This document shows positions 6,397-49,591 of a stretch of 64,000 nt of DNA, in pieces. The notes under the pieces were generated by a model. It ran no database searches and had not been told where the DNA came from. It worked only from the letters and a program-made list of their open reading frames with translations. The stretch covers positions 3,621 through 67,620 of the forward strand of contig JBGVCY010000052.1 of NCBI GenBank assembly GCA_045119135.1. The letters run 5' to 3'. The number at the start of each line of letters is the position of its first letter. The stretch's first letter is position 1. The translations under genes and the position numbers were made by a program. Source of the stretch: Eubacteriales bacterium. Lineage in GTDB: Bacteria > Bacillota > Clostridia > Oscillospirales > CAG-272.

Positions 6397-6420
6397 AAGC
6401 AGGTATGTGCTAGCAAAAAC

Positions 6421-6450
6421 AAAAACGCTCCCACGTGGGAGCGTTTTTTG
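6421..6450. terminator. Bidirectional terminator between the yhaN-like gene and dapB
   Basis: aaaaACGCTCCCACGTGGGAGCGTtttttg. The same hairpin recurs at 49558-49586. Confidence 0.75.
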
Positions 6451-6467
6451 TTCACTTGCGGTCAAAC

Positions 6468-40552: not shown

Positions 40553-43105
40553 ATGAAAAAAGTAAGCTTTGCCGTAACCGGCATGACCTGCGCCGCTTGC
40601 GTTGCCCACGTCGAGCGCGCGGCTCGCGGCGTGCTTGGCGACGGAATTCCCTTTACCGTCAGCCTGTTATCCAATACCCTTTCGCTCTCGCTTGAGGATT
40701 CTGCCGATGCCGAGGCGCTCTTCCGCCGCCTTGCGGCGGCGCTGAAGCGCGCGGGCTACGGGCTGGAAAAGCCCGAGGCGCGCAGCGACGCGGCGCGCGC
40801 GGCACGCGAGCGGCGCCGCGAGACCGCGCGGCTTGTCGCATCGATCGCACTGACGGCTCTGTTGATGGTGGTTGCGATGTGGCATATGACGCCTCTGCCC
40901 GCACCCTGGATCTTGGATTCGTCGCGCTATCCCGTGGCATTCTGGTGCTTGCAGGCGGTGCTGACGGGGGTTGTTATTTTTTTAGAGCGCCGCTTCTGGC
41001 GCGGCGGCTTCTCGGCGCTTTTGCACCGATCGCCGAATATGGATTCGCTGGTGGCGCTGGGCTCGGCATCGGCTGCCGTATACGGCTTGGTCGCGGGCGG
41101 CTTTATCCTTTACGGCACCGCCGTGGGCGATGCCGCGCTGGTGCACCGCTATCTGCACGAGCTGTATCTCGAATCGGCGGCAATGATCTTGACCCTTGTT
41201 TCGGTGGGCAAGTTTTTGGAAGGGCGCGCCCGCAACCGCGCCGCAGGCGCGGTACGCGCGCTGATTTCCGAGGAAGCCACCACCGCACACGTGCTGCGCG
41301 ATGGCAAGGAATGTGAGGTACTGACCGCCGAGCTTGCCGCAGGCGACCTGCTGCTTGTCCGCGAGGGCGAAAAGATTCCCACCGATGGCAAGATCGAAGG
41401 GGGCGAGGGTAGTGTCAACGAGGCGATGCTGACAGGCGAATCGCTCCCCCGTGCCGTTGCCGCAGGCGACGAGGTATCGGGTGCTACGGTTCTGGTGGAA
41501 GGAACGCTGACCGTGCGCGCTACGCGCGTGGGCGAAGAAACAACACTGCGCCGCATTGCGGCTCTGCTGGAAGAGACCGCCGCCACAAAAGCCCCCGTAC
41601 AACGCCTTGCCGACAAGGTCAGCTCCATTTTTGTGCCCGCCGTGCTTTGCATCTCACTGCTGACGGCTGTCGTGTGGCTGATTGCCACGCGCAACGTATC
41701 ACTTGCCTTCCGCACCGCGGTTTCGGTGCTGGTCATCTCCTGTCCCTGTGCGCTGGGGCTTGCCACCCCCACCGCCATTACGGTGGGCAGTGGACGGGGC
41801 GCACGCTTTGGCATTCTTTTCAAAAGCGCCGAGGCGCTGGAAACGCTTTCCTCGATGCGCTATCTGCTGACCGACAAAACGGGGACTCTGACGAAGGGCG
41901 AAATGACGGTAACCGACCGTCTGTGCCTTGCGGGCGACGAGCCGTATTTTCTCGCCGTTACCGCCTCGGTCGAGGCGCTTTCCGCGCATCCCGTGGCAAA
42001 GCCGCTTGCTGCACTTTCGGATGCTCGCTTCCCCATCGAGGACCTTGTTTCGCATACCGCACGCGGACTGTCCGCCTCGCTTGCGGGCGAGCGCGTGCTG
42101 GCAGGCAACGTGGCGCTGTTTGCCGAAACCGCGGGCGCGCCTCTGCTTTCCCCCGAGGTGCTTGCAACCGTTTCGCTGTGGGAGGGCGAGGGCAAAAGCG
42201 TTACGGTAGTTGCCAAAGGCGATACCGTTTTGGGACTTGTTGCCGTTGCCGATACCCTGCGCGAGGATAGCCCCGCCGCCGTTGCGGCGCTGAAGCGCCA
42301 CGGCGTGCAGGTGGTGATGCTGACGGGTGACCACGAGCGCACGGCGCGCAAGATTGCCGCCGAGGCGGGAATCGATGCCTTCCGCGCGGGGCTGTTGCCT
42401 GCTGATAAGGAGCGTATCGCGCACGAATACACCGAAAAGGATGTCACCGCTATGGTGGGTGACGGCATCAACGATGCGCCCGCGCTTGCGCGCGCTGACA
42501 TTGGTATCGCCATTGGTGCGGGCACGGCAGTTGCTGTGGAATCGGCATCGGTGGTGCTGTCGGGCAATACCCTATCGGATGCGGTTGCCGCCATGGAATT
42601 GGGGCGTGCCACCCGTCGCAACATCCGACAGAATCTCTTTTGGGCACTGCTGTATAACGCCATCTGTATCCCCGTGGCGGCAGGCGTGTTTTACGCCCCG
42701 TTCGGGCTCTTACTCACCCCGATGATCGCTTCGGCGGCGATGAGCTGCTCGTCGATCTTTGTGGTGCTGAACGCTCTGCGCCTTTCGCGCTTTATTCCCC
42801 CGTCGATCCGCGCACGCGAGCAAGCTCGCCGCGCTGAAGAAAAAGCATATCAAGAAAAAAGAAAGAAGGAAGAGGAAATGTTTTTTAAGAAAAAGGAAAC
42901 CGTGACAACCGTTCTTTCGGTTGAGGGTATGATGTGCGGCAAGTGCGCCGCGCACGTGGAAAACGCACTGAAGGCACTGAAGGGTGTCACCGCGGTCAAG
43001 GTCGACCTTGATGCCAAATCGGTGACGGTAACCGCCACCGCCAAGGTTACCGCCGACGCGATGAAAAAAGCGATCACCGACGCGGGCTACACCGTGGTCG
43101 ACTGA
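40553..43105 (+). CDS. copA: Copper-translocating P1B-1 ATPase with N-terminal and C-terminal HMA domains
   Basis: 850 aa; [37 protein letters not shown], and a C-terminal [11 protein letters not shown] domain after a Lys/Glu linker. Confidence 0.95.
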
Positions 43106-43112
43106 CGCACCG

Positions 43113-43176
43113 CACAAAAAAACCGAGCATCCTGCGATGCTCGGTTTTTTATGTTTCCTCCGCCGCCGCGGCGCGG
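43113..43176. repeat. 64-bp direct repeat, copy A (terminator hairpin plus duplicated 3' end of the AraC gene)
   Basis: CACAAAAAAACCGAGCATCCTGCGATGCTCGGTTTTTTATGTTTCCTCCGCCGCCGCGGCGCGG, identical to 43796-43859. Confidence 0.95.
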
Positions 43177-43180
43177 AATT

Positions 43181-43444
43181 TCATTTCATTACTTCAATCA
43201 ATGCTTTCGCCGCAAGGCAGAAACCTTCACAAAACGCTTGCTCTCCATAAAGCGTCAACAGGTCGCCGTAACGATCCGCATACGCTTCCAGCATTTCCCC
43301 GCCCTTTGTGTCCAACAAATCCAAAAGCTTTTCGTGATGCTTGGCAATCAGCAATTCCAATTCCTTGATTGCTTCGTTTTTGCAAGCGCAGGCTTCAGCG
43401 GGATAAAAATTACCATTCCATAATTCTTGTAAAATGTTTTTCAT
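43181..43444 (-). CDS. Small helical protein of unknown function (87 aa), cassette gene
   Basis: MKNILQELWNGNFYPAE...; AGGAGG RBS before the ATG at 43442-43444. Divergent from the XRE gene. Confidence 0.7.
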   Translation of the reverse strand: MKNILQELWNGNFYPAEACACKNEAIKELELLIAKHHEKLLDLLDTKGGEMLEAYADRYGDLLTLYGEQAFCEGFCLAAKALIEVMK

Positions 43445-43462
43445 ACAGCCTCCTGTAAATCG

Positions 43463-43526
43463 CACAAATTTGTGTTGCTGTCGAAATTATAGCACAAATT
43501 TGTGCGAACGTCAACACAAATTTGTG
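43463..43526. promoter_or_regulatory. Triple palindromic operator array (3 x CACAAATTTGTG)
   Basis: Perfect 12-bp palindromes at 43463-43474, 43493-43504 and 43515-43526. The third overlaps a putative -35 upstream of TATAAT (43535-43540). Confidence 0.7.
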
Positions 43527-43560
43527 CGATTCGTTATAATAAATGCAATGAGGTGATGAA

Positions 43561-43779
43561 ATGAGACGATTTGAAAACCGCTTGCGCGATTTGCGAGAGG
43601 ATAAAGACCTGACACAAGCAGAAGTGGCGAAAATCTTCTTCTTGCAAGTAACGCAATACAGAAGATATGAAAACGGAGAAAGCGATCTCCCTCTTGAATT
43701 GGCAAAAAAGTTTGCAAAATTCTACAACGTGTCCATTGATTATATCGCCATGCTGATTGAAACACCGCGAAAGCTGTAA
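43561..43779 (+). CDS. XRE-family helix-turn-helix regulator (72 aa)
   Basis: LRDLREDKDLTQAEVAKIF...VTQYRRYENGESDLPLELAKKFAKFYNVSIDYI. Confidence 0.88.
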   Translation: MRRFENRLRDLREDKDLTQAEVAKIFFLQVTQYRRYENGESDLPLELAKKFAKFYNVSIDYIAMLIETPRKL

Positions 43780-43795
43780 GCATTGACCCCAAGCC

Positions 43796-43859
43796 CACAA
43801 AAAAACCGAGCATCCTGCGATGCTCGGTTTTTTATGTTTCCTCCGCCGCCGCGGCGCGG
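43796..43859. repeat. 64-bp direct repeat, copy B (functional terminator plus true 3' end of the AraC gene)
   Basis: Identical to 43113-43176. It includes the last 9 codons and stop of the AraC gene (43832-43859). Confidence 0.95.
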
Positions 43860-44755
43860 CGCTTGGAGGAATATTTGCTGTATTCGGTGGGGGTCATCCC
43901 CACACGCCCCTTGAATATTTTTGAAAAATACCCCACCGAGGAAAAGCCCAACCCCTCGGCAATATCGGTAAAACTTGCGGCGGAATGACGGATGCGGGTC
44001 TTTGCCTCATCGATCTTTAAATCGATAAAATAATCCATCACGCCCTTGCCCTCGATCTTACGGAACTTCCGCGACAGCGCAGTACGGCTGACCCAGAACT
44101 GCGCGCAAATGTCGCCGAGTGACAAATGCTGTTCAAGATTCTCGGCAAGAAAAATTTTGACCTGTTCGACAAGGCGGCTCTCGCCAAGGTGCCTGCTGAC
44201 CTTTTCGGTCTCGTCCGTGAGGAATCCGATGCCCGACAGACGGCAATACAGCAGACAAAGAAAGCGCTCAAGCGAGGCACACACAAAGCTGAGCATCACG
44301 GGCGGCACGTCGGGGCGCACCTTCATGCCCTCGTGCTCCTCTTCCTCAACGGGCTGACAGATACGCGCGGCGGTGCGCATCAGATCGTAAAGGGTGGCGC
44401 GCTCTTCCTCACAAAGCGCCACAGGCGGGCGGTGAAAGGTTTGCATGGCGGGCGAATCACAGATGAAATCCACCACGGCAAAACGAACGTCATCCCCTGT
44501 GTCATAGGTGAACTGACACGCCTCGAACGCGGGGTGAAAAACGATCATGCCGGGGGTCATCACAAAGCTTTCCTGCTCGGTGGTATAGGTGGCACTGCCC
44601 GATATCATTAAAATGATCTGTGTAAAGTCATACTTTTCCCAGCCGAGATCCACATCGGGCGCGGCAACGAAATGGTATGCCGCCACAAACGAGCTGACAT
44701 CAAAGAATTTATTATTCTCGGTTCTGTGGAACTCGGTTGCCGTTTTGATATACAA
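43832..44755 (-). CDS. AraC-family transcriptional regulator
   Basis: 307 aa; cupin-like N-terminus, and C-terminal HTH LSLGDICAQFWVSRTALSRKF...IAEGLGFSSVGYFSKIFK. Confidence 0.88.
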   Translation of the reverse strand: MYIKTATEFHRTENNKFFDVSSFVAAYHFVAAPDVDLGWEKYDFTQIILMISGSATYTTEQESFVMTPGMIVFHPAFEACQFTYDTGDDVRFAVVDFICDSPAMQTFHRPPVALCEEERATLYDLMRTAARICQPVEEEEHEGMKVRPDVPPVMLSFVCASLERFLCLLYCRLSGIGFLTDETEKVSRHLGESRLVEQVKIFLAENLEQHLSLGDICAQFWVSRTALSRKFRKIEGKGVMDYFIDLKIDEAKTRIRHSAASFTDIAEGLGFSSVGYFSKIFKGRVGMTPTEYSKYSSKRRAAAAEET

Positions 44756-44884
44756 AATACCCCTCCTCCCGTTCGTTTTTTACCAAAGAAGTGTTCGATT
44801 TGACATAGATTTTTTGCGTTTCCAATGGTAAGATTACTATACAACACCCGCAAAAATTTGTCAAGACACGAAAGGAAATGAGCT

Positions 44885-46222
44885 ATGAAATTGTTAACGC
44901 TTGCCGAGCAGCGCCGCCGCTTCGACAATCTTACCTTCGCTTACGGCGCAGTGAAGGATTGCCTTTTCAAGCATCAGGTGCACGATTATATCCCCGGTCA
45001 TGCCATTTATAACTTCGGCGAGTACCCTCGCCCTGTATCCGCCGCACCCACCGAGTTTGATGAGCAGCGCCTTGCCGAGCTTGCAAGCATCGGCGTGGGG
45101 CTGATCCACATTCACGAGGATTGGAACGACGCGATCCGCGTGGGCGGCGCCGACAAATACACCTCTACCGACCCCAAGGGTCTTGCCGCCTTCATCGAGC
45201 TTTGCCACAAGAACGGCATTAAGGTGCTTCCCTATTTTTCCACGGGCTTTTTCGACGTGCGCGACCCCGATATGCGCGAGGAATTCTATCACCCCAAGCG
45301 CCCGACACTATTCTCGAGACACTTCAAATTCACGGGCTGTGACCCCAAATCCCCCGAATGGACGACCTTCGTTCTTGAAAAGATGAAGGGTATCCTTGAC
45401 AATCACGATTGGGACGGCATCTATAACGATATGGGCTACCCCGACGATGCAAATTTCATTGACGGATACATTCAAAACGACCCCTATATCGAGGATACGA
45501 TGGCGCGTATCTACTCTGCCGTCAAGGAGCGCGGCGGCATTGTGAAGGTGCATCAGGGTGCGTGCATCGCGCCGCGCGCCAACACCAAGATTTACGATTA
45601 CCTGATCGTTGGCGAAAGCGTTGCCGACCCCGCCGAGCTTCGTCGCTCCGCCACCTTCCAGCCCTATATTACCCCCCTCACCGACTTCTGGTTCTACAAG
45701 GGCGAGCCCGACGAGGTATTTGCCCGCACCATTCCCTTTATGCAGTTTGAAAACCGCTACGACGGCCGTCCCTTCACGGGCGAGCGCATCACCGTGCCGG
45801 GCATTGATTACACCTTTAACAAGATCGACAACCGCATGGATATGTACGTTGCCAGCAAAAAGTGGTATGACGAGCATCCCGACGGGCCCTACACGTACAG
45901 CGAATGGTCGTCGGTGCCCGATGATGTGGCACACCGCGACAAGTGGGCGTCGTACATGGCGCTTTACCGCCCTATGGTAGAGGAAAACTCGCACGTTCTT
46001 GCCGATATCACCGACAGCACCCTGTTGCTTGGCAAAAAGCCCGACAGCATTGTGATGAGCCTGTTTGTGAACAGCGAATGTTATTTGGTGGTTTCCAACG
46101 TGGGAGAGAAGCCCCAAAAAGTAACCCTTGCCGAGGAATGGATCGATCGCGAAAGCGGCAAACCCGTGCGCGAGTTGACACTGGGCAAATGCGAGCTTTC
46201 GTTCCTTGTCAAGCCGCAATGA
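44885..46222 (+). CDS. Hypothetical 445-aa protein, possibly a TIM-barrel glycosidase-like fold
   Basis: Long clean ORF divergent from the AraC gene. IHIHEDWND...GIKVLPYFSTGF...WDGIYNDMGY resembles glycoside-hydrolase-like barrels, but I do not recognise a family. Confidence 0.7.
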   Translation: MKLLTLAEQRRRFDNLTFAYGAVKDCLFKHQVHDYIPGHAIYNFGEYPRPVSAAPTEFDEQRLAELASIGVGLIHIHEDWNDAIRVGGADKYTSTDPKGLAAFIELCHKNGIKVLPYFSTGFFDVRDPDMREEFYHPKRPTLFSRHFKFTGCDPKSPEWTTFVLEKMKGILDNHDWDGIYNDMGYPDDANFIDGYIQNDPYIEDTMARIYSAVKERGGIVKVHQGACIAPRANTKIYDYLIVGESVADPAELRRSATFQPYITPLTDFWFYKGEPDEVFARTIPFMQFENRYDGRPFTGERITVPGIDYTFNKIDNRMDMYVASKKWYDEHPDGPYTYSEWSSVPDDVAHRDKWASYMALYRPMVEENSHVLADITDSTLLLGKKPDSIVMSLFVNSECYLVVSNVGEKPQKVTLAEEWIDRESGKPVRELTLGKCELSFLVKPQ

Positions 46223-46223
46223 T

Positions 46224-46252
46224 AAAAAAGAGCCGCAAAGCGGCTCTTTTTT
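46224..46252 (+). terminator. Rho-independent terminator
   Basis: aaaaaaGAGCCGCaaaGCGGCTCtttttt. Confidence 0.8.
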
Positions 46253-46323
46253 GCTTTCTTTCTCTTGCAAACCGACGCTCGCGGTGTTACAATAAAATCA
46301 ACACCAAAAAAGGGGGACTTTCC

Positions 46324-47028
46324 ATGCTTACGGTCTCACATTTAACGAAACAATATGGCAAAAATCTTGCCTGCAACGATCTTTCCTTCCACGTGGATCG
46401 CGGCAGCATTACCGTGCTTCTCGGTCCTAACGGTGCGGGAAAATCAACACTTCTCAAATCCGTCACGGGCTTTTTGCGTTACGGTGGCGAGGTGCTGGTG
46501 GACGGCATCCCGAACAAAACCGTTGAGGCAAAGCGCGTGATGGGCTACATTCCCGAAATTCCATCTCTTTACCCCAATCTGACGGTTGCCGAGCATATGG
46601 AATTCATTGCGCGCGCCTACCGTCTTACCGATTACAAGGCATTCGCCGAGGAGCTGCTCACCCGCTTTGAGCTTGACGACAAGAAAAAGAAATTCGGCGA
46701 CGAGCTTTCGAAGGGTATGCAGCAAAAGCTGAACCTGTGCTTGGGGCTCCTGCCCCGTCCGCAGCTTTTGTTGATGGATGAGCCGATGATCGGTCTTGAC
46801 CCTCACGCCATCAAGGAGCTGAAGACGATGATCGAGGAGATGCGCGCCGAGGGGCGCACCGTGCTGGTTTCCACGCATATGATCGACAGCATCGATATGC
46901 TGTGGGATCGCACGCTGATTATGCGGGGCGGTTGTCTTGTGGGCAACGTCACGCGCGAGGAGCTGGCGGCAAATCAGCAAACGCTTGAGGAGCTGTTCTT
47001 CTCGCTTACCGAGGGTGGCGTGCAATGA
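46324..47028 (+). CDS. ABC transporter ATP-binding protein
   Basis: GPNGAGKSTLLK Walker A, LSKGMQQKL signature, LLLMDEP Walker B. The internal ATG at 46324 of track ORF 45943..47028 is used. Confidence 0.93.
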   Translation: MLTVSHLTKQYGKNLACNDLSFHVDRGSITVLLGPNGAGKSTLLKSVTGFLRYGGEVLVDGIPNKTVEAKRVMGYIPEIPSLYPNLTVAEHMEFIARAYRLTDYKAFAEELLTRFELDDKKKKFGDELSKGMQQKLNLCLGLLPRPQLLLMDEPMIGLDPHAIKELKTMIEEMRAEGRTVLVSTHMIDSIDMLWDRTLIMRGGCLVGNVTREELAANQQTLEELFFSLTEGGVQ

Positions 47029-48656
47029 AGCTGATTTTTTACTATCTGACACGCACCGTCAAAAACCAAATTCGCAAGATTTTCCGCACGTGGGTGGCTG
47101 TTTTCCTTCTGGTCTGCCTTGTATTCGGTCTTTTGTGCGGTCTTGGCGCGGCGGCGCTGGAGTCGTTATTTGAGGACGACAGCGCGGACGAGGAGATCAC
47201 CGAAACCGTGCCCGAGGAAGAAGAACTCATACTGACCGAGGAAGAAAAAAGCGCCGTGCTCGAGCTGATCACGGGCGGCGTGGTGCTGGCGGTGCTGTTT
47301 TTCAGTGCCTTTCTTGCCGATAAAAACGGCGGCTCGATCTTTTTGATGGCAGACGTCAACCTCTTGTTTGCCGCCCCGTTAAAGCCCCAATCGGTGCTTT
47401 TGTTCCGCCTCATTATGCAGGCGGGTACTTCGATCATTGCCACCATTTATATCATCTTTCAGATTCCGAATCTGGTGATCAATCTGGGGCTTGGCATCGG
47501 CACGGGGCTTGCGCTGATCGGCGCGTGGTTCTTCCTGATGATCTACGCCAAGCTGATTTCGGTTCTGCTGTATACGCTCTCATCCACCTATCCGCGCGTA
47601 AAGCGCTGTCTGCGCCCCGCGCTGTGGGCGCTACTGCTTCTCATTGGCGGTGGCTATTGGCTGTCGGCACAAGGTGCAGAAAACTATTTTGTGGCGGCAC
47701 TTTCCTATTTTAACGCCCCCGTTACCCGCTATATTCCCGTGTGGGGGTGGCTGAAGGGATTTGTGCTCTTCGCCGCCGAGGGGCACATTGCGGGCGCACT
47801 GCTCTCGCTTGCCGCACTGCTTGTTGCGGCGGTACTGCTGGTGCTGGTGATCTGGCGCATCAAAGCCGATTTTTATGAGGATGCGATGGCACGCTCAGAG
47901 GAAACTGCCGAGCTGCAGCAGGCGGCAAACGCAGGAAAGGCACAGATGAAGCAACGTAAAAAGGATCGCAGCGAGCGCCTTTCGCGAGGCGGTCTGTCAC
48001 AGGGTGCGGGCGCCAGCGTTTATTTTTACAAGGCGATGTACAACCGCTTCCGCTTTGCGCACCTGCGCGTGTTTACCAAAACAAGCGAAACCTATCTGCT
48101 GTGTGCCGTGGGGCTTTCCCTGCTGTTGCTGTTCGTCATCAAATCCCCCGTGTTTGTCGTTGTTCCCCTGGTGCTTGGCGGTCTGAGCTTTTTCCGCTCG
48201 CTCGGCAATCCCATTGCCACCGATATCGAGAAGGAATCCTTTTTCCTTGTGCCCGATACCGCACACCGTAAGGTGCTGTTTTCCTTCGCGGCGGGCGTTT
48301 TGAACGCGGTGCTTGATCTGTTGCCCGCCTTTTTGGTGGCGTGCGTGCTGCTGCGCCCCGATCCCCTATCGGCGCTGGTGTGGTTCTTGGTGGTGGTATC
48401 GCTTGGTGCCTATTCGGATAGCGTGGGAATGTTTATCGACCTGTCGCTTTCCACGGGACTTTCGCAGATCGTCAAATCCCTTGTGCAGATCCTGTTTATC
48501 TATTTCGGACTGATCCCCGCGGTGGTACTGATCGTGCTGGGCTTCGCGCTTGATAAACTCTTGCTGTTCGCTCTGCTTTGTGTGCTGTTTAACCTTGCAC
48601 TGACCGCCATTTCGCTTACCGTATCGCCACTTTTTGTAGAAAACGGACGGAAATGA
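47025..48656 (+). CDS. Polytopic membrane protein, putative ABC exporter permease partner
   Basis: 543 aa, many TM helices, ATGA overlap with the ATPase gene. Confidence 0.78.
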   Translation: MKLIFYYLTRTVKNQIRKIFRTWVAVFLLVCLVFGLLCGLGAAALESLFEDDSADEEITETVPEEEELILTEEEKSAVLELITGGVVLAVLFFSAFLADKNGGSIFLMADVNLLFAAPLKPQSVLLFRLIMQAGTSIIATIYIIFQIPNLVINLGLGIGTGLALIGAWFFLMIYAKLISVLLYTLSSTYPRVKRCLRPALWALLLLIGGGYWLSAQGAENYFVAALSYFNAPVTRYIPVWGWLKGFVLFAAEGHIAGALLSLAALLVAAVLLVLVIWRIKADFYEDAMARSEETAELQQAANAGKAQMKQRKKDRSERLSRGGLSQGAGASVYFYKAMYNRFRFAHLRVFTKTSETYLLCAVGLSLLLLFVIKSPVFVVVPLVLGGLSFFRSLGNPIATDIEKESFFLVPDTAHRKVLFSFAAGVLNAVLDLLPAFLVACVLLRPDPLSALVWFLVVVSLGAYSDSVGMFIDLSLSTGLSQIVKSLVQILFIYFGLIPAVVLIVLGFALDKLLLFALLCVLFNLALTAISLTVSPLFVENGRK

Positions 48657-48665
48657 TTCAAAAAC

Positions 48666-48698
48666 AAAAGACCCGAAGCCGCGGCTTCGGGTCTTTTG
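48666..48698. terminator. Bidirectional terminator
   Basis: aaaaGACCCGAAGCCgcGGCTTCGGGTCtttt. Confidence 0.8.
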
Positions 48699-48699
48699 T

Positions 48700-49440
48700 T
48701 TAGGATGCATCCTCGTAGTTCGTATCCTCACCAAGGCTTGCCATCGCGTCACTGTCTAAATAGTCGGTGGGGTCAACGGCAAGACCGTTTACCGTCATTT
48801 CCACGTGCAGGTGCGGCTCCTCGGCAACCTCTACCATAGCGCTCTCGCCCACGGTACCGATCACGTCGCCCGCCTTCACGGCGGCACCGATCACCACTCC
48901 CTCAGGCAGCTCGGTCGACAGATTCTTATAAATGGTATAGGCATCGCCGCTGTGTGCTACTGCCACGCACTTGCCCATATACACGTCATCCCATACCTGC
49001 GAGATCACGCCATCCGCCATCGCCGATACGCTGGCGCCCGCCACCGTACCGATATCCAGCCCTACGTGCATGCGGTAATCCTTCATTGTCTCGGAAAACA
49101 CCTGCACGTCAACGTGGTGCGATTTCTGCAAAACCCCGTCAACGGGTAGCAAAAAACGGGTGGGAAGTGCGCCCGTTTCAGTGTCGCCCTTGTCGCCTTC
49201 GTCATCCCCGTCATCGGGATCGTCGGGCAGGTCGGGCGTTTCGTTCCCGTCATCATCGGGGTCGGTCACACCTGCGGGCTGACTGTAGCCTGCATCGTAA
49301 TCGTTATCCACGGCGCGGTTGGCGATCACGGTGGTCACAATGATCGCCGTCAGCACCAGAAACATTGCCGTTACCGTAATGGCAATGGCGCGTGCGCCCT
49401 TGTCCTCACGCAGCTTCATAAAAATATTGTTCTTTTTCAT
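48700..49440 (-). CDS. Membrane-anchored M23/LytM-family metallopeptidase
   Basis: N-terminal TM, acidic linker, then HVGLDIG...GKCVAVAHSGDAYTIYKNL...HLHVEMTVNG (HxxxD and HxH). Confidence 0.88.
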   Translation of the reverse strand: MKKNNIFMKLREDKGARAIAITVTAMFLVLTAIIVTTVIANRAVDNDYDAGYSQPAGVTDPDDDGNETPDLPDDPDDGDDEGDKGDTETGALPTRFLLPVDGVLQKSHHVDVQVFSETMKDYRMHVGLDIGTVAGASVSAMADGVISQVWDDVYMGKCVAVAHSGDAYTIYKNLSTELPEGVVIGAAVKAGDVIGTVGESAMVEVAEEPHLHVEMTVNGLAVDPTDYLDSDAMASLGEDTNYEDAS

Positions 49441-49557
49441 CGTTGCTCTCCTTTTTTTGTGCTGCTTCTATTTTTGCCACGTTTTCCACACTTATACGGC
49501 ATGGACAAAAATTTCTGCACAAAAACCGGATGCATCTCTTCCCCCGAAACGGTAAAT

Positions 49558-49586
49558 AAAAAACGCTCCCACGTGGGAGCGTTTTA
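49558..49586. terminator. Hairpin terminator, second copy of the ACGCTCCCACGTGGGAGCGT hairpin
   Basis: aaaaaACGCTCCCACGTGGGAGCGTttt, identical stem-loop to 6421-6450. Confidence 0.7.
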
Positions 49587-49591
49587 TATTT

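Follow-up and report, generated by a model that had tools for sequence, protein, structure and literature searches.

In bacterial chromosomes, most small accessory genes show no sign of how they arrived. How genes that bring no recombinase enter a chromosome is the question raised by a two-gene cassette of 619 bp, composed of a DUF6809 gene and an XRE-family regulator gene, which we analysed in a stretch of 64,000 nt (hereafter the window, to which all coordinates refer) of contig JBGVCY010000052.1 from an Eubacteriales bacterium. The cassette is enclosed by two copies of the 64-nt sequence CACAAAAAAACCGAGCATCCTGCGATGCTCGGTTTTTTATGTTTCCTCCGCCGCCGCGGCGCGG (hereafter R), located at 43113-43176 (R1) and 43796-43859 (R2). 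The two copies are 100% identical and their starts are 683 nt apart, the cassette plus one R forming a unit of 683 bp. This perfect direct repeat had been noticed in an earlier reading of the sequence alone (hereafter the original prediction) and is confirmed here. We show that the cassette was inserted at the single bidirectional terminator common to two convergent genes, copA and araC, and that the terminator and the last 28 nt of araC were duplicated. No third match to R was found in the window with up to three mismatches, and none of 100 shuffles gave any; the R pair is the sole long direct repeat of such a kind in the 64 kb. R ends abruptly on both sides, being preceded by CCG and followed by AATT at the first copy, and preceded by GCC and followed by CGCT at the second.

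Each copy of R contains a terminator hairpin (43117-43150 in R1 and 43800-43833 in R2), in which an A-tract, a stem, a loop and a T-tract follow each other: the stem has 9 G+C-rich base pairs (CCGAGCATC/GATGCTCGG), the loop 4 nt and the flanks are A7 and T6 (z = -4.8). These symmetric flanks mean that the hairpin can terminate transcription in both directions. The left neighbour is a gene for a copA-type P1B ATPase (40553-43105, forward strand) and the right neighbour a gene for an AraC-family regulator (43832-44755, reverse strand), convergent with each other in the empty site. R2 holds the functional last 28 nt of araC, i.e., its last nine codons plus the stop codon, and keeps this gene intact; the corresponding 28 nt of R1 (43149-43176, reverse strand), placed by the offset of the araC stop codon (43832-43834) in R and read from the sequence, are a dead duplicate. 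A 10-bp G+C palindrome, CGCCGCGGCG, lies 3 nt from the right end of R (43164-43173 and 43847-43856). Rightward transcription ends at R1 for copA and at R2 for the XRE gene, leftward transcription at R1 for the DUF6809 gene and at R2 for araC. The DUF6809 stop codon lies just 4 nt from R1 and the XRE stop codon 16 nt from R2, so all four genes end at a copy of one bidirectional terminator. The hairpin and gene coordinates thereby agree with the original prediction, according to which the repeat comprises a shared bidirectional terminator and the last 28 nt of the AraC gene. An Rfam scan gave no match at any family threshold.

Contigs with an empty site were found by looking up AraC variants in public assemblies (comparison contigs carry L-numbers). 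A contig of 7.6 kb from another sample (L045) aligns to window positions 41277-43176 and 43796-49583 at 99.2% identity; the two alignments overlap by exactly 64 nt, and the order is copA, one R, araC. The same order occurs in a second empty contig, about 99% identical and from a third sample (L123). A relative with 86% DNA identity (L047) carries a single, diverged R, which differs from the window R by about 10 substitutions in 64 positions and one extra T. Both R copies of the window match the single R of the empty strains L045 and L123 at 64 of 64 positions. The filled arrangement is also present in L002 (98.9% identical, both R copies) and in the short, partial contigs L003 and L004. The filled structure was thus obtained from four independent samples with different assemblers, in the same compact form in all four contigs, and the empty one was recovered in three samples. 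Because empty sites exist in near-identical strains, the insertion is real and represents a presence/absence polymorphism in an uncultured, spore-forming gut Clostridia population. The original prediction had proposed an insertion and named the empty site to look for (copA-terminator-araC with one 64-bp copy); both are borne out by these three contigs.

The exact XRE protein is encoded in four contigs, all of them at the window locus, and the cluster of the DUF6809 protein has two members, both also at this locus; in an exact-protein look-up, the DUF6809 and CopA proteins of the window were not on record. One contig retrieved with AraC (L001) stops inside the hairpin. When species-representative genomes were searched with AraC, the best match had 50% identity and was not syntenic. 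In an 80% identical relative (L049, 2096-2156), the similarity to the window also stops inside the hairpin; only the right arm is conserved and is followed by unrelated sequence up to the contig end, which may correspond to another rearrangement at the hairpin or to an assembly end.

The strains differ in and around R in a way that shows recombination or gene conversion. The flank haplotypes are mosaic, L045 combining a window-like left flank with an L002-like right flank. L002 has a derived G at R position 10 in both copies, and at position 22 an A in R1 (the outgroup state) and a G in R2; L003 and L004 have a common cassette haplotype and different nucleotides at position 10 of R2. This pattern fits homologous exchange between strains, conversion between R1 and R2 or cycles of excision and integration alike. 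Within the cassette, the strains differ by three substitutions in 619 bp and by a 30-bp deletion allele; the flanks are similarly diverse, so the insertion dates from around the time when these strains diverged. Recombination between R1 and R2 could have turned some filled sites back into empty ones.

The leftward gene of the cassette (43181-43444, reverse strand), preceded by an AGGAGG ribosome-binding site 4 nt upstream, encodes an 87-aa protein of the DUF6809 family (PF20648, E = 1.3e-18; 68 bits for a cut-off of 27), whose residues 1-85 cover profile positions 1-85. Structure prediction yields, with high confidence, a four-helix protein (pLDDT 92.4), and no counterpart of the predicted structure was found in the PDB. 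Because the conserved columns of the family contain only Leu, Trp, Gly, Pro and Phe, the protein is, judging from its sequence, not an enzyme. It gave no match in NCBIfam, PHROGs or PADLOC, and a literature search returned no paper mentioning DUF6809. The rightward gene (43561-43779, forward strand) encodes a 72-aa regulator of the XRE family (HTH_3, PF01381, E = 7e-13; 48.8 bits for a cut-off of 23). It matches phage-repressor families (phrog_8, E = 1e-14; RstR-type, E = 6e-15), and its matches to antitoxin-like HTH families are weak and below threshold.

Between the two divergent genes lies a control region of 116 bp (43445-43560). It contains three copies of the 12-bp palindromic operator CACAAATTTGTG, at 43463-43474 (O1), 43493-43504 (O2) and 43515-43526 (O3), so that the divergent gene pair with its operator array stands as originally described. 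The predicted leftward promoter has a -35 box TTGACG (43514-43509), a spacer of 17 nt and a -10 box TATAAT (43491-43486); the predicted rightward promoter has a -35 box TCAACA (43511-43516), a spacer of 18 nt and a -10 box TATAAT (43535-43540). The two predicted promoters overlap back to back: the XRE promoter contains O3, and the DUF6809 promoter has O2 in its spacer and O1 just downstream of its -10 box. The XRE protein probably binds the three operators; it would then act through O1 and O2 on the DUF6809 promoter and through O3 on its own, repressing both. Autoregulation of the XRE gene together with repression of DUF6809 would constitute a small switch of the immunity type. A type II toxin-antitoxin pair was considered and rejected, the genes being divergent and DUF6809 belonging to no matched toxin family. 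The deletion allele of L003 and L004 (gap at window 43462-43495) lacks one operator and the -10 box of DUF6809 (43486-43491); DUF6809 is probably silenced in strains with this allele.

No recombinase, transposase or nuclease domain was detected in the cassette; the module thus has no recombinase of its own, as originally claimed. Recombinase and transposase Pfam domains were also not found in the 41 window ORFs scanned, which include housekeeping genes (SpoIIIAH, DapA/DapB, QueA, MiaA, Alr and an ABC exporter). A prophage or an integrative and conjugative element (ICE) with its own integrase does not fit, as the repeats enclose two genes, neither with a recombinase domain. Integron gene cassettes have an attC core of the type RYYYAAC/GTTRRRY and a promoterless ORF, with an IntI integrase and attI nearby. 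R contains AAAAAAC and GTTTTTT, which depart from the core consensus, the two genes have their own promoters and no integrase was found, so that an integron cassette was rejected as well. A search for terminal inverted repeats gave one inverted match of 9 nt, whose arms lie 22 nt and 9 nt inward from the cassette ends, and a chance match of the same length exists elsewhere in the cassette. Without terminal inverted repeats, with a duplication of 64 bp, as a single copy in the window and at one locus in the protein collection, the cassette does not qualify as an insertion sequence (IS) or a miniature inverted-repeat transposable element. The original prediction had stressed that transposase duplications fall far below 64 bp. 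Target duplications of 16-28 bp in the IS1202 group are already considered 'unusually long' for insertion sequences (PMC10132070), and the duplication found here is more than twice that length.

The module itself comes from elsewhere: its GC content of 0.417, for 0.568 in the window (0.578 in R), and a sister cassette with 73% identity in another genome show it to be foreign and horizontally acquired, moving as a unit. A HMMER scan of 1.84 billion cluster representatives with DUF6809 retrieved 302 of them at E <= 0.001. The closest relative outside the locus (P0092) has 57% identity and all others at most 46%; a word-indexed homologue search had returned only the L002 variant, the full scan being needed to reach P0092. 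This relative is encoded in contigs L071-L073 by a divergent XRE-DUF6809 pair located between a 250-aa gene and ldh, which are convergent. The L071 cassette is 73% identical to the window cassette over 543 nt (window 43210-43748) and has a GC content of 0.377 in a host genome of 0.57-0.59. Its operators, CACAAAATTGTG and CACAATATTGTG, are similar to those of the window. When the two cassettes are compared over their length (window 43181-43779 and L071 3180-3771), the XRE proteins are 88% identical and the DUF6809 proteins 57%; DUF6809 diverges much faster than XRE between them.

A third, more distant pair lies between convergent DUF2804 and GH31 genes (L051-L060), and a fourth type of DUF6809 locus is not located between convergent genes (L061-L070). 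Searches for flanking direct repeats of at least 14 nt were negative at the loci outside the window. The original prediction had proposed to look for the same cassette at other loci. A collection of about 15 billion proteins (5.8 billion clusters) yielded no second locus, and searches with XRE and DUF6809 for a donor in phage and plasmid collections and viral contigs gave no related cassette; the sister cassette, at its different locus, is without flanking repeats. The only viral or phage matches were DUF6809 homologues of 29-31% identity in gut phages and an unrelated XRE protein (53%). One such homologue (30% identity) is encoded by the human-gut phage NatCom_17901 (L050 4001-4270; PV036423.1 29320-29589), in a moron-like position between tail genes and the tape-measure gene and beside a gene annotated as antitoxin. 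A search of JGI metagenomes with the hairpin pattern CCGAGCATCNNNCGATGCTCGG gave 49 matches, all of them chance hairpins without flank similarity, and viral contigs gave 0; R itself was absent from the phage, plasmid, viral-contig and JGI metagenome collections.

The same site received another insertion in a sister species. Two contigs that are 98.6% identical to the empty L047 (L124, 3553-4271, and L125) have another insert, 719 bp long, at a distance of 17-18 bp from the R boundary; it interrupts the final codons of araC, within the same G+C-rich tail (about 43840-43860 in the window). It contains a gene for a 132-aa DUF559 protein (a Vsr-like endonuclease), arrays of several hairpins of the form CCTCCCTC-N-GAGGGAGG, and a pair of tandem units of 63 bp with sequence resembling the araC tail. 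On both sides of the insertion stands a duplicated 12-nt sequence, CGCCGCGGCGGA, that spans the homologue of the palindrome CGCCGCGGCG; the insertion alters the C-terminus of AraC (305 aa). In the literature, we found DUF559 nowhere described as a mobile element. Since two unrelated recombinase-less modules, both with oversized duplications, were inserted within about 20 bp in sister lineages, the site itself is insertion-prone.

We tentatively favour, at somewhat less than even confidence, a one-off, illegitimate insertion driven by the site and not by an element-encoded or cognate recombinase, with a target duplication of 64 bp. R evolves fast, as seen in L047, and both window copies are nevertheless identical to the R of the empty strains, so that the first event must have duplicated resident target DNA, which speaks against an imported attP. 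The original prediction had read the long identical flanks as attL and attR; both copies being the resident allele, they point to a target duplication. In the favoured scenario, breaks would have occurred outside two structure-forming palindromes, 4 nt to the left of the terminator hairpin and 3 nt to the right of CGCCGCGGCG. These breaks may have been staggered and filled in, or sister copies may have been joined unequally, and a foreign fragment caught between the ends would have given R-cassette-R. Selection would have kept this product, in which each of the four genes has a terminator and araC is intact; insertion into the 43-bp spacer without duplication of the terminator would leave genes unterminated or truncate araC, which would explain why this is the product seen. 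The allele may later have spread or been lost through homologous recombination in the flanks, and recombination between R1 and R2 could delete the cassette precisely, in agreement with the excision between repeats originally envisaged.

Several points weigh against this scenario. The pattern at R positions 10 and 22 in L002 is also expected from repeated excision and re-integration, and fine haplotype patterns may be partly artefactual, metagenome contigs being consensus sequences. The scan for an integrase covers the 64-kb window, and one may be encoded elsewhere in the genome; two insertions near one site would also fit a recombinase that targets it. Finally, the break-and-capture step is deduced from its products, the searches gave no donor against which to score microhomology at the junctions, and events that duplicate 64 bp around a captured fragment are rare.

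These points bring back the reading of the original prediction, which we consider unlikely but the most serious competitor: a miniature att-flanked unit of 683 bp, inserted and excised by site-specific or Campbell-type recombination in R, with an integrase provided in trans by the genome or by a helper. Perfect 64-bp repeats that restore the 3' end of the target gene have the classical look of attL and attR, and correspond to the definition of a cis-mobilizable element (CIME), i.e., an element that kept attL and attR but no longer has the genes for integration and transfer (PMC5704250). The layout of the flanking repeats agrees with such an att-flanked element, their att function being putative. 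Filled and empty alleles coexist among strains that are about 99% identical, the R alleles of L002, L003 and L004 imply exchange in or beside R, and the hairpin, a perfect palindrome, can be read from the sequence as two recombinase-binding arms around a short spacer. However, no integrase domain is present in the cassette or in the window ORFs scanned, no larger element was observed here in the relatives (the DUF559 gene is the only other insert), the cassette occurs at no second locus and in no phage or plasmid collection, and the sister cassette has no att-like repeats and is located at an unrelated site. Moreover, the 64/64 identity implies that the attP derived from this very host, so that the first duplication would still have to be explained.

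A dedicated route seems to us doubtful. According to this proposal, DUF6809-XRE pairs would be recombinase-free mobile cassettes, placed between convergent genes by an activity of the host or of a helper that cuts the DNA to the left and right of terminator hairpins; duplications of tens of bp would be visible only in recent insertions such as the present one, and the DUF559 module would have used this route as well. Three of the four independent DUF6809 loci examined (window, L071-L073 and L051-L060) indeed lie exactly between convergent chromosomal genes at terminators, the cassette GC is below that of the host, the 64-bp duplication far exceeds the 16-28 bp called 'unusually long' (PMC10132070), and the second recombinase-less module, with its 12-nt duplication, lies in the same stretch. 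Nevertheless, flanking repeats are present at the window locus only, two other loci having none of at least 14 nt, and no convergent pair of genes encloses the fourth type of locus (L061-L070). Convergent junctions are also the places where an insertion is least harmful, such that survivorship can explain the pattern, and no candidate enzyme is known. If a recurring process at terminator hairpins were nonetheless at work, it would represent a new mode of gene gain.

Less probable again is a remnant of a larger element (prophage, ICE or integrative and mobilizable element, IME) that used an integrase of its own to enter at R and was reduced by internal deletion to the XRE-DUF6809 pair, as the original prediction had also suggested. 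The matches of the XRE protein to phage-repressor families (phrog_8 and RstR-type), the resemblance of the divergent genes and their three operators to a phage immunity switch and the distant DUF6809 homologue (30%) in a gut phage speak for such an origin. Against it, the gaps of 4 nt and 16 nt between stop codons and repeats leave no pseudogene fragments, all four filled contigs are equally compact, the sister cassette, at a different place in a chromosome, also consists of this pair alone, and no strain was found with a larger element at the site. Descent from an ICE or IME is rejected, as there are no gene remnants, no larger element in L045, L047, L123, L124 or L125, and no match in phages or plasmids.

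We give still less credence to an ancestral filled state with two R copies, from which all empty sites would have arisen by R1 x R2 recombination. Such recombination gives the exact empty allele that is seen, and the similar diversity of cassette and flanks indicates that the insertion is not very recent. However, at the corresponding position the terminator is present only once in L047 and in L124 and L125 of the same species, and the GC content of the cassette is foreign; even if some of the empty sites at about 99% identity are revertants, the insertion is still derived.

Least probable of all, and very unlikely, is an assembly artefact, i.e., a spurious duplication in the window or a false merging of the two copies in the empty contigs: every sequence comes from metagenome assembly, small k-mers are shorter than a 64-bp repeat and L001, a Logan contig, stops inside the hairpin, but the filled form comes from four independent samples with different assemblers and the empty form from three samples, two of its contigs (L045 and L123) having names with a k141 prefix, which we take as assembly with 141-mers, so that reads truly spanning the copA-R-araC join would have been needed.

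The one-off insertion that we favour would show how convergent genes can receive an insert without harm when the terminator common to them is duplicated. The locus is a clear case, found in nature, of two genes that lack a recombinase and were inserted at a shared terminator together with a target duplication of exceptional length. As the insertion product, the untouched target and a related cassette elsewhere are all present in natural populations, the entry route of such pairs is testable. DUF6809 gains a defined context, as the putatively repressor-controlled, horizontally moving and fast-diverging partner of an XRE protein.

The surroundings of the cassette show further peculiarities. The 3' part of the copA ORF (42820-43105) encodes a Lys/Glu-rich linker, is A-rich and contains imperfect repeats (42837-42908); the linker is followed by a second heavy-metal-associated domain starting with Met-Phe-Phe-Lys-Lys-Lys, and this part looks like a gene for a CopZ-type metallochaperone fused in frame to copA. 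Beside araC, a 445-aa ORF (44885-46222; region 44757-46244) has no Pfam match and is absent from the 83-86% identical relative L124, in which araC directly adjoins an ABC-transporter gene, a second presence/absence difference at this locus. Two terminator-like hairpins located 43 kb apart (6416-6452 and 49554-49590) are 89% identical over 37 nt (AAAAACGCTCCCACGTGGGAGCGTTTT) and may belong to a small dispersed hairpin family.

The cassette shares features with several known systems. As in insertion sequences, the target is directly duplicated on both sides of the insert; IS duplications are mostly of 2-14 bp, whereas here the duplication is of 64 bp, there is no transposase, the inverted 9-mer is at chance level and the element is in single copy. 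With the CIMEs described in the ICE and IME biology of streptococci, it shares a non-autonomous segment, flanking direct repeats that include the 3' end of a target gene and the absence of integration and transfer genes (PMC5704250). CIMEs, however, are decayed ICEs or IMEs, and a related element, resident or incoming, uses their att sites; in the present case, no decay remnants and no cognate element or integrase were found, the unit measures only 683 bp and the two repeats consist entirely of host sequence. Like phage morons and small chromosomal islets, the cassette has its own promoters and terminators (the latter duplicated), a deviant GC content and a location between genes left undisturbed; unlike morons, it lies in no prophage, forms a predicted two-gene repressor-operator switch and is accompanied by a 64-bp target duplication. 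The control region recalls the lambda-type cI/cro switch in its divergent genes, its small HTH protein of the Cro/CI type and its three similar palindromic operators over both promoters; it differs in that the partner is DUF6809, a non-HTH protein, and that no prophage surrounds it; binding to the operators is predicted. Finally, when Cas1-Cas2 acquires a CRISPR spacer, the repeat is duplicated: a partly palindromic target of tens of bp is nicked, or attacked by strand transfer, at each of its two borders, and the gaps are then filled in. Here there is no CRISPR array, leader or cas gene, and a single event concerned 619 bp of coding DNA; the likeness, which we draw by analogy, would lie in a target of tens of bp duplicated around an insert.

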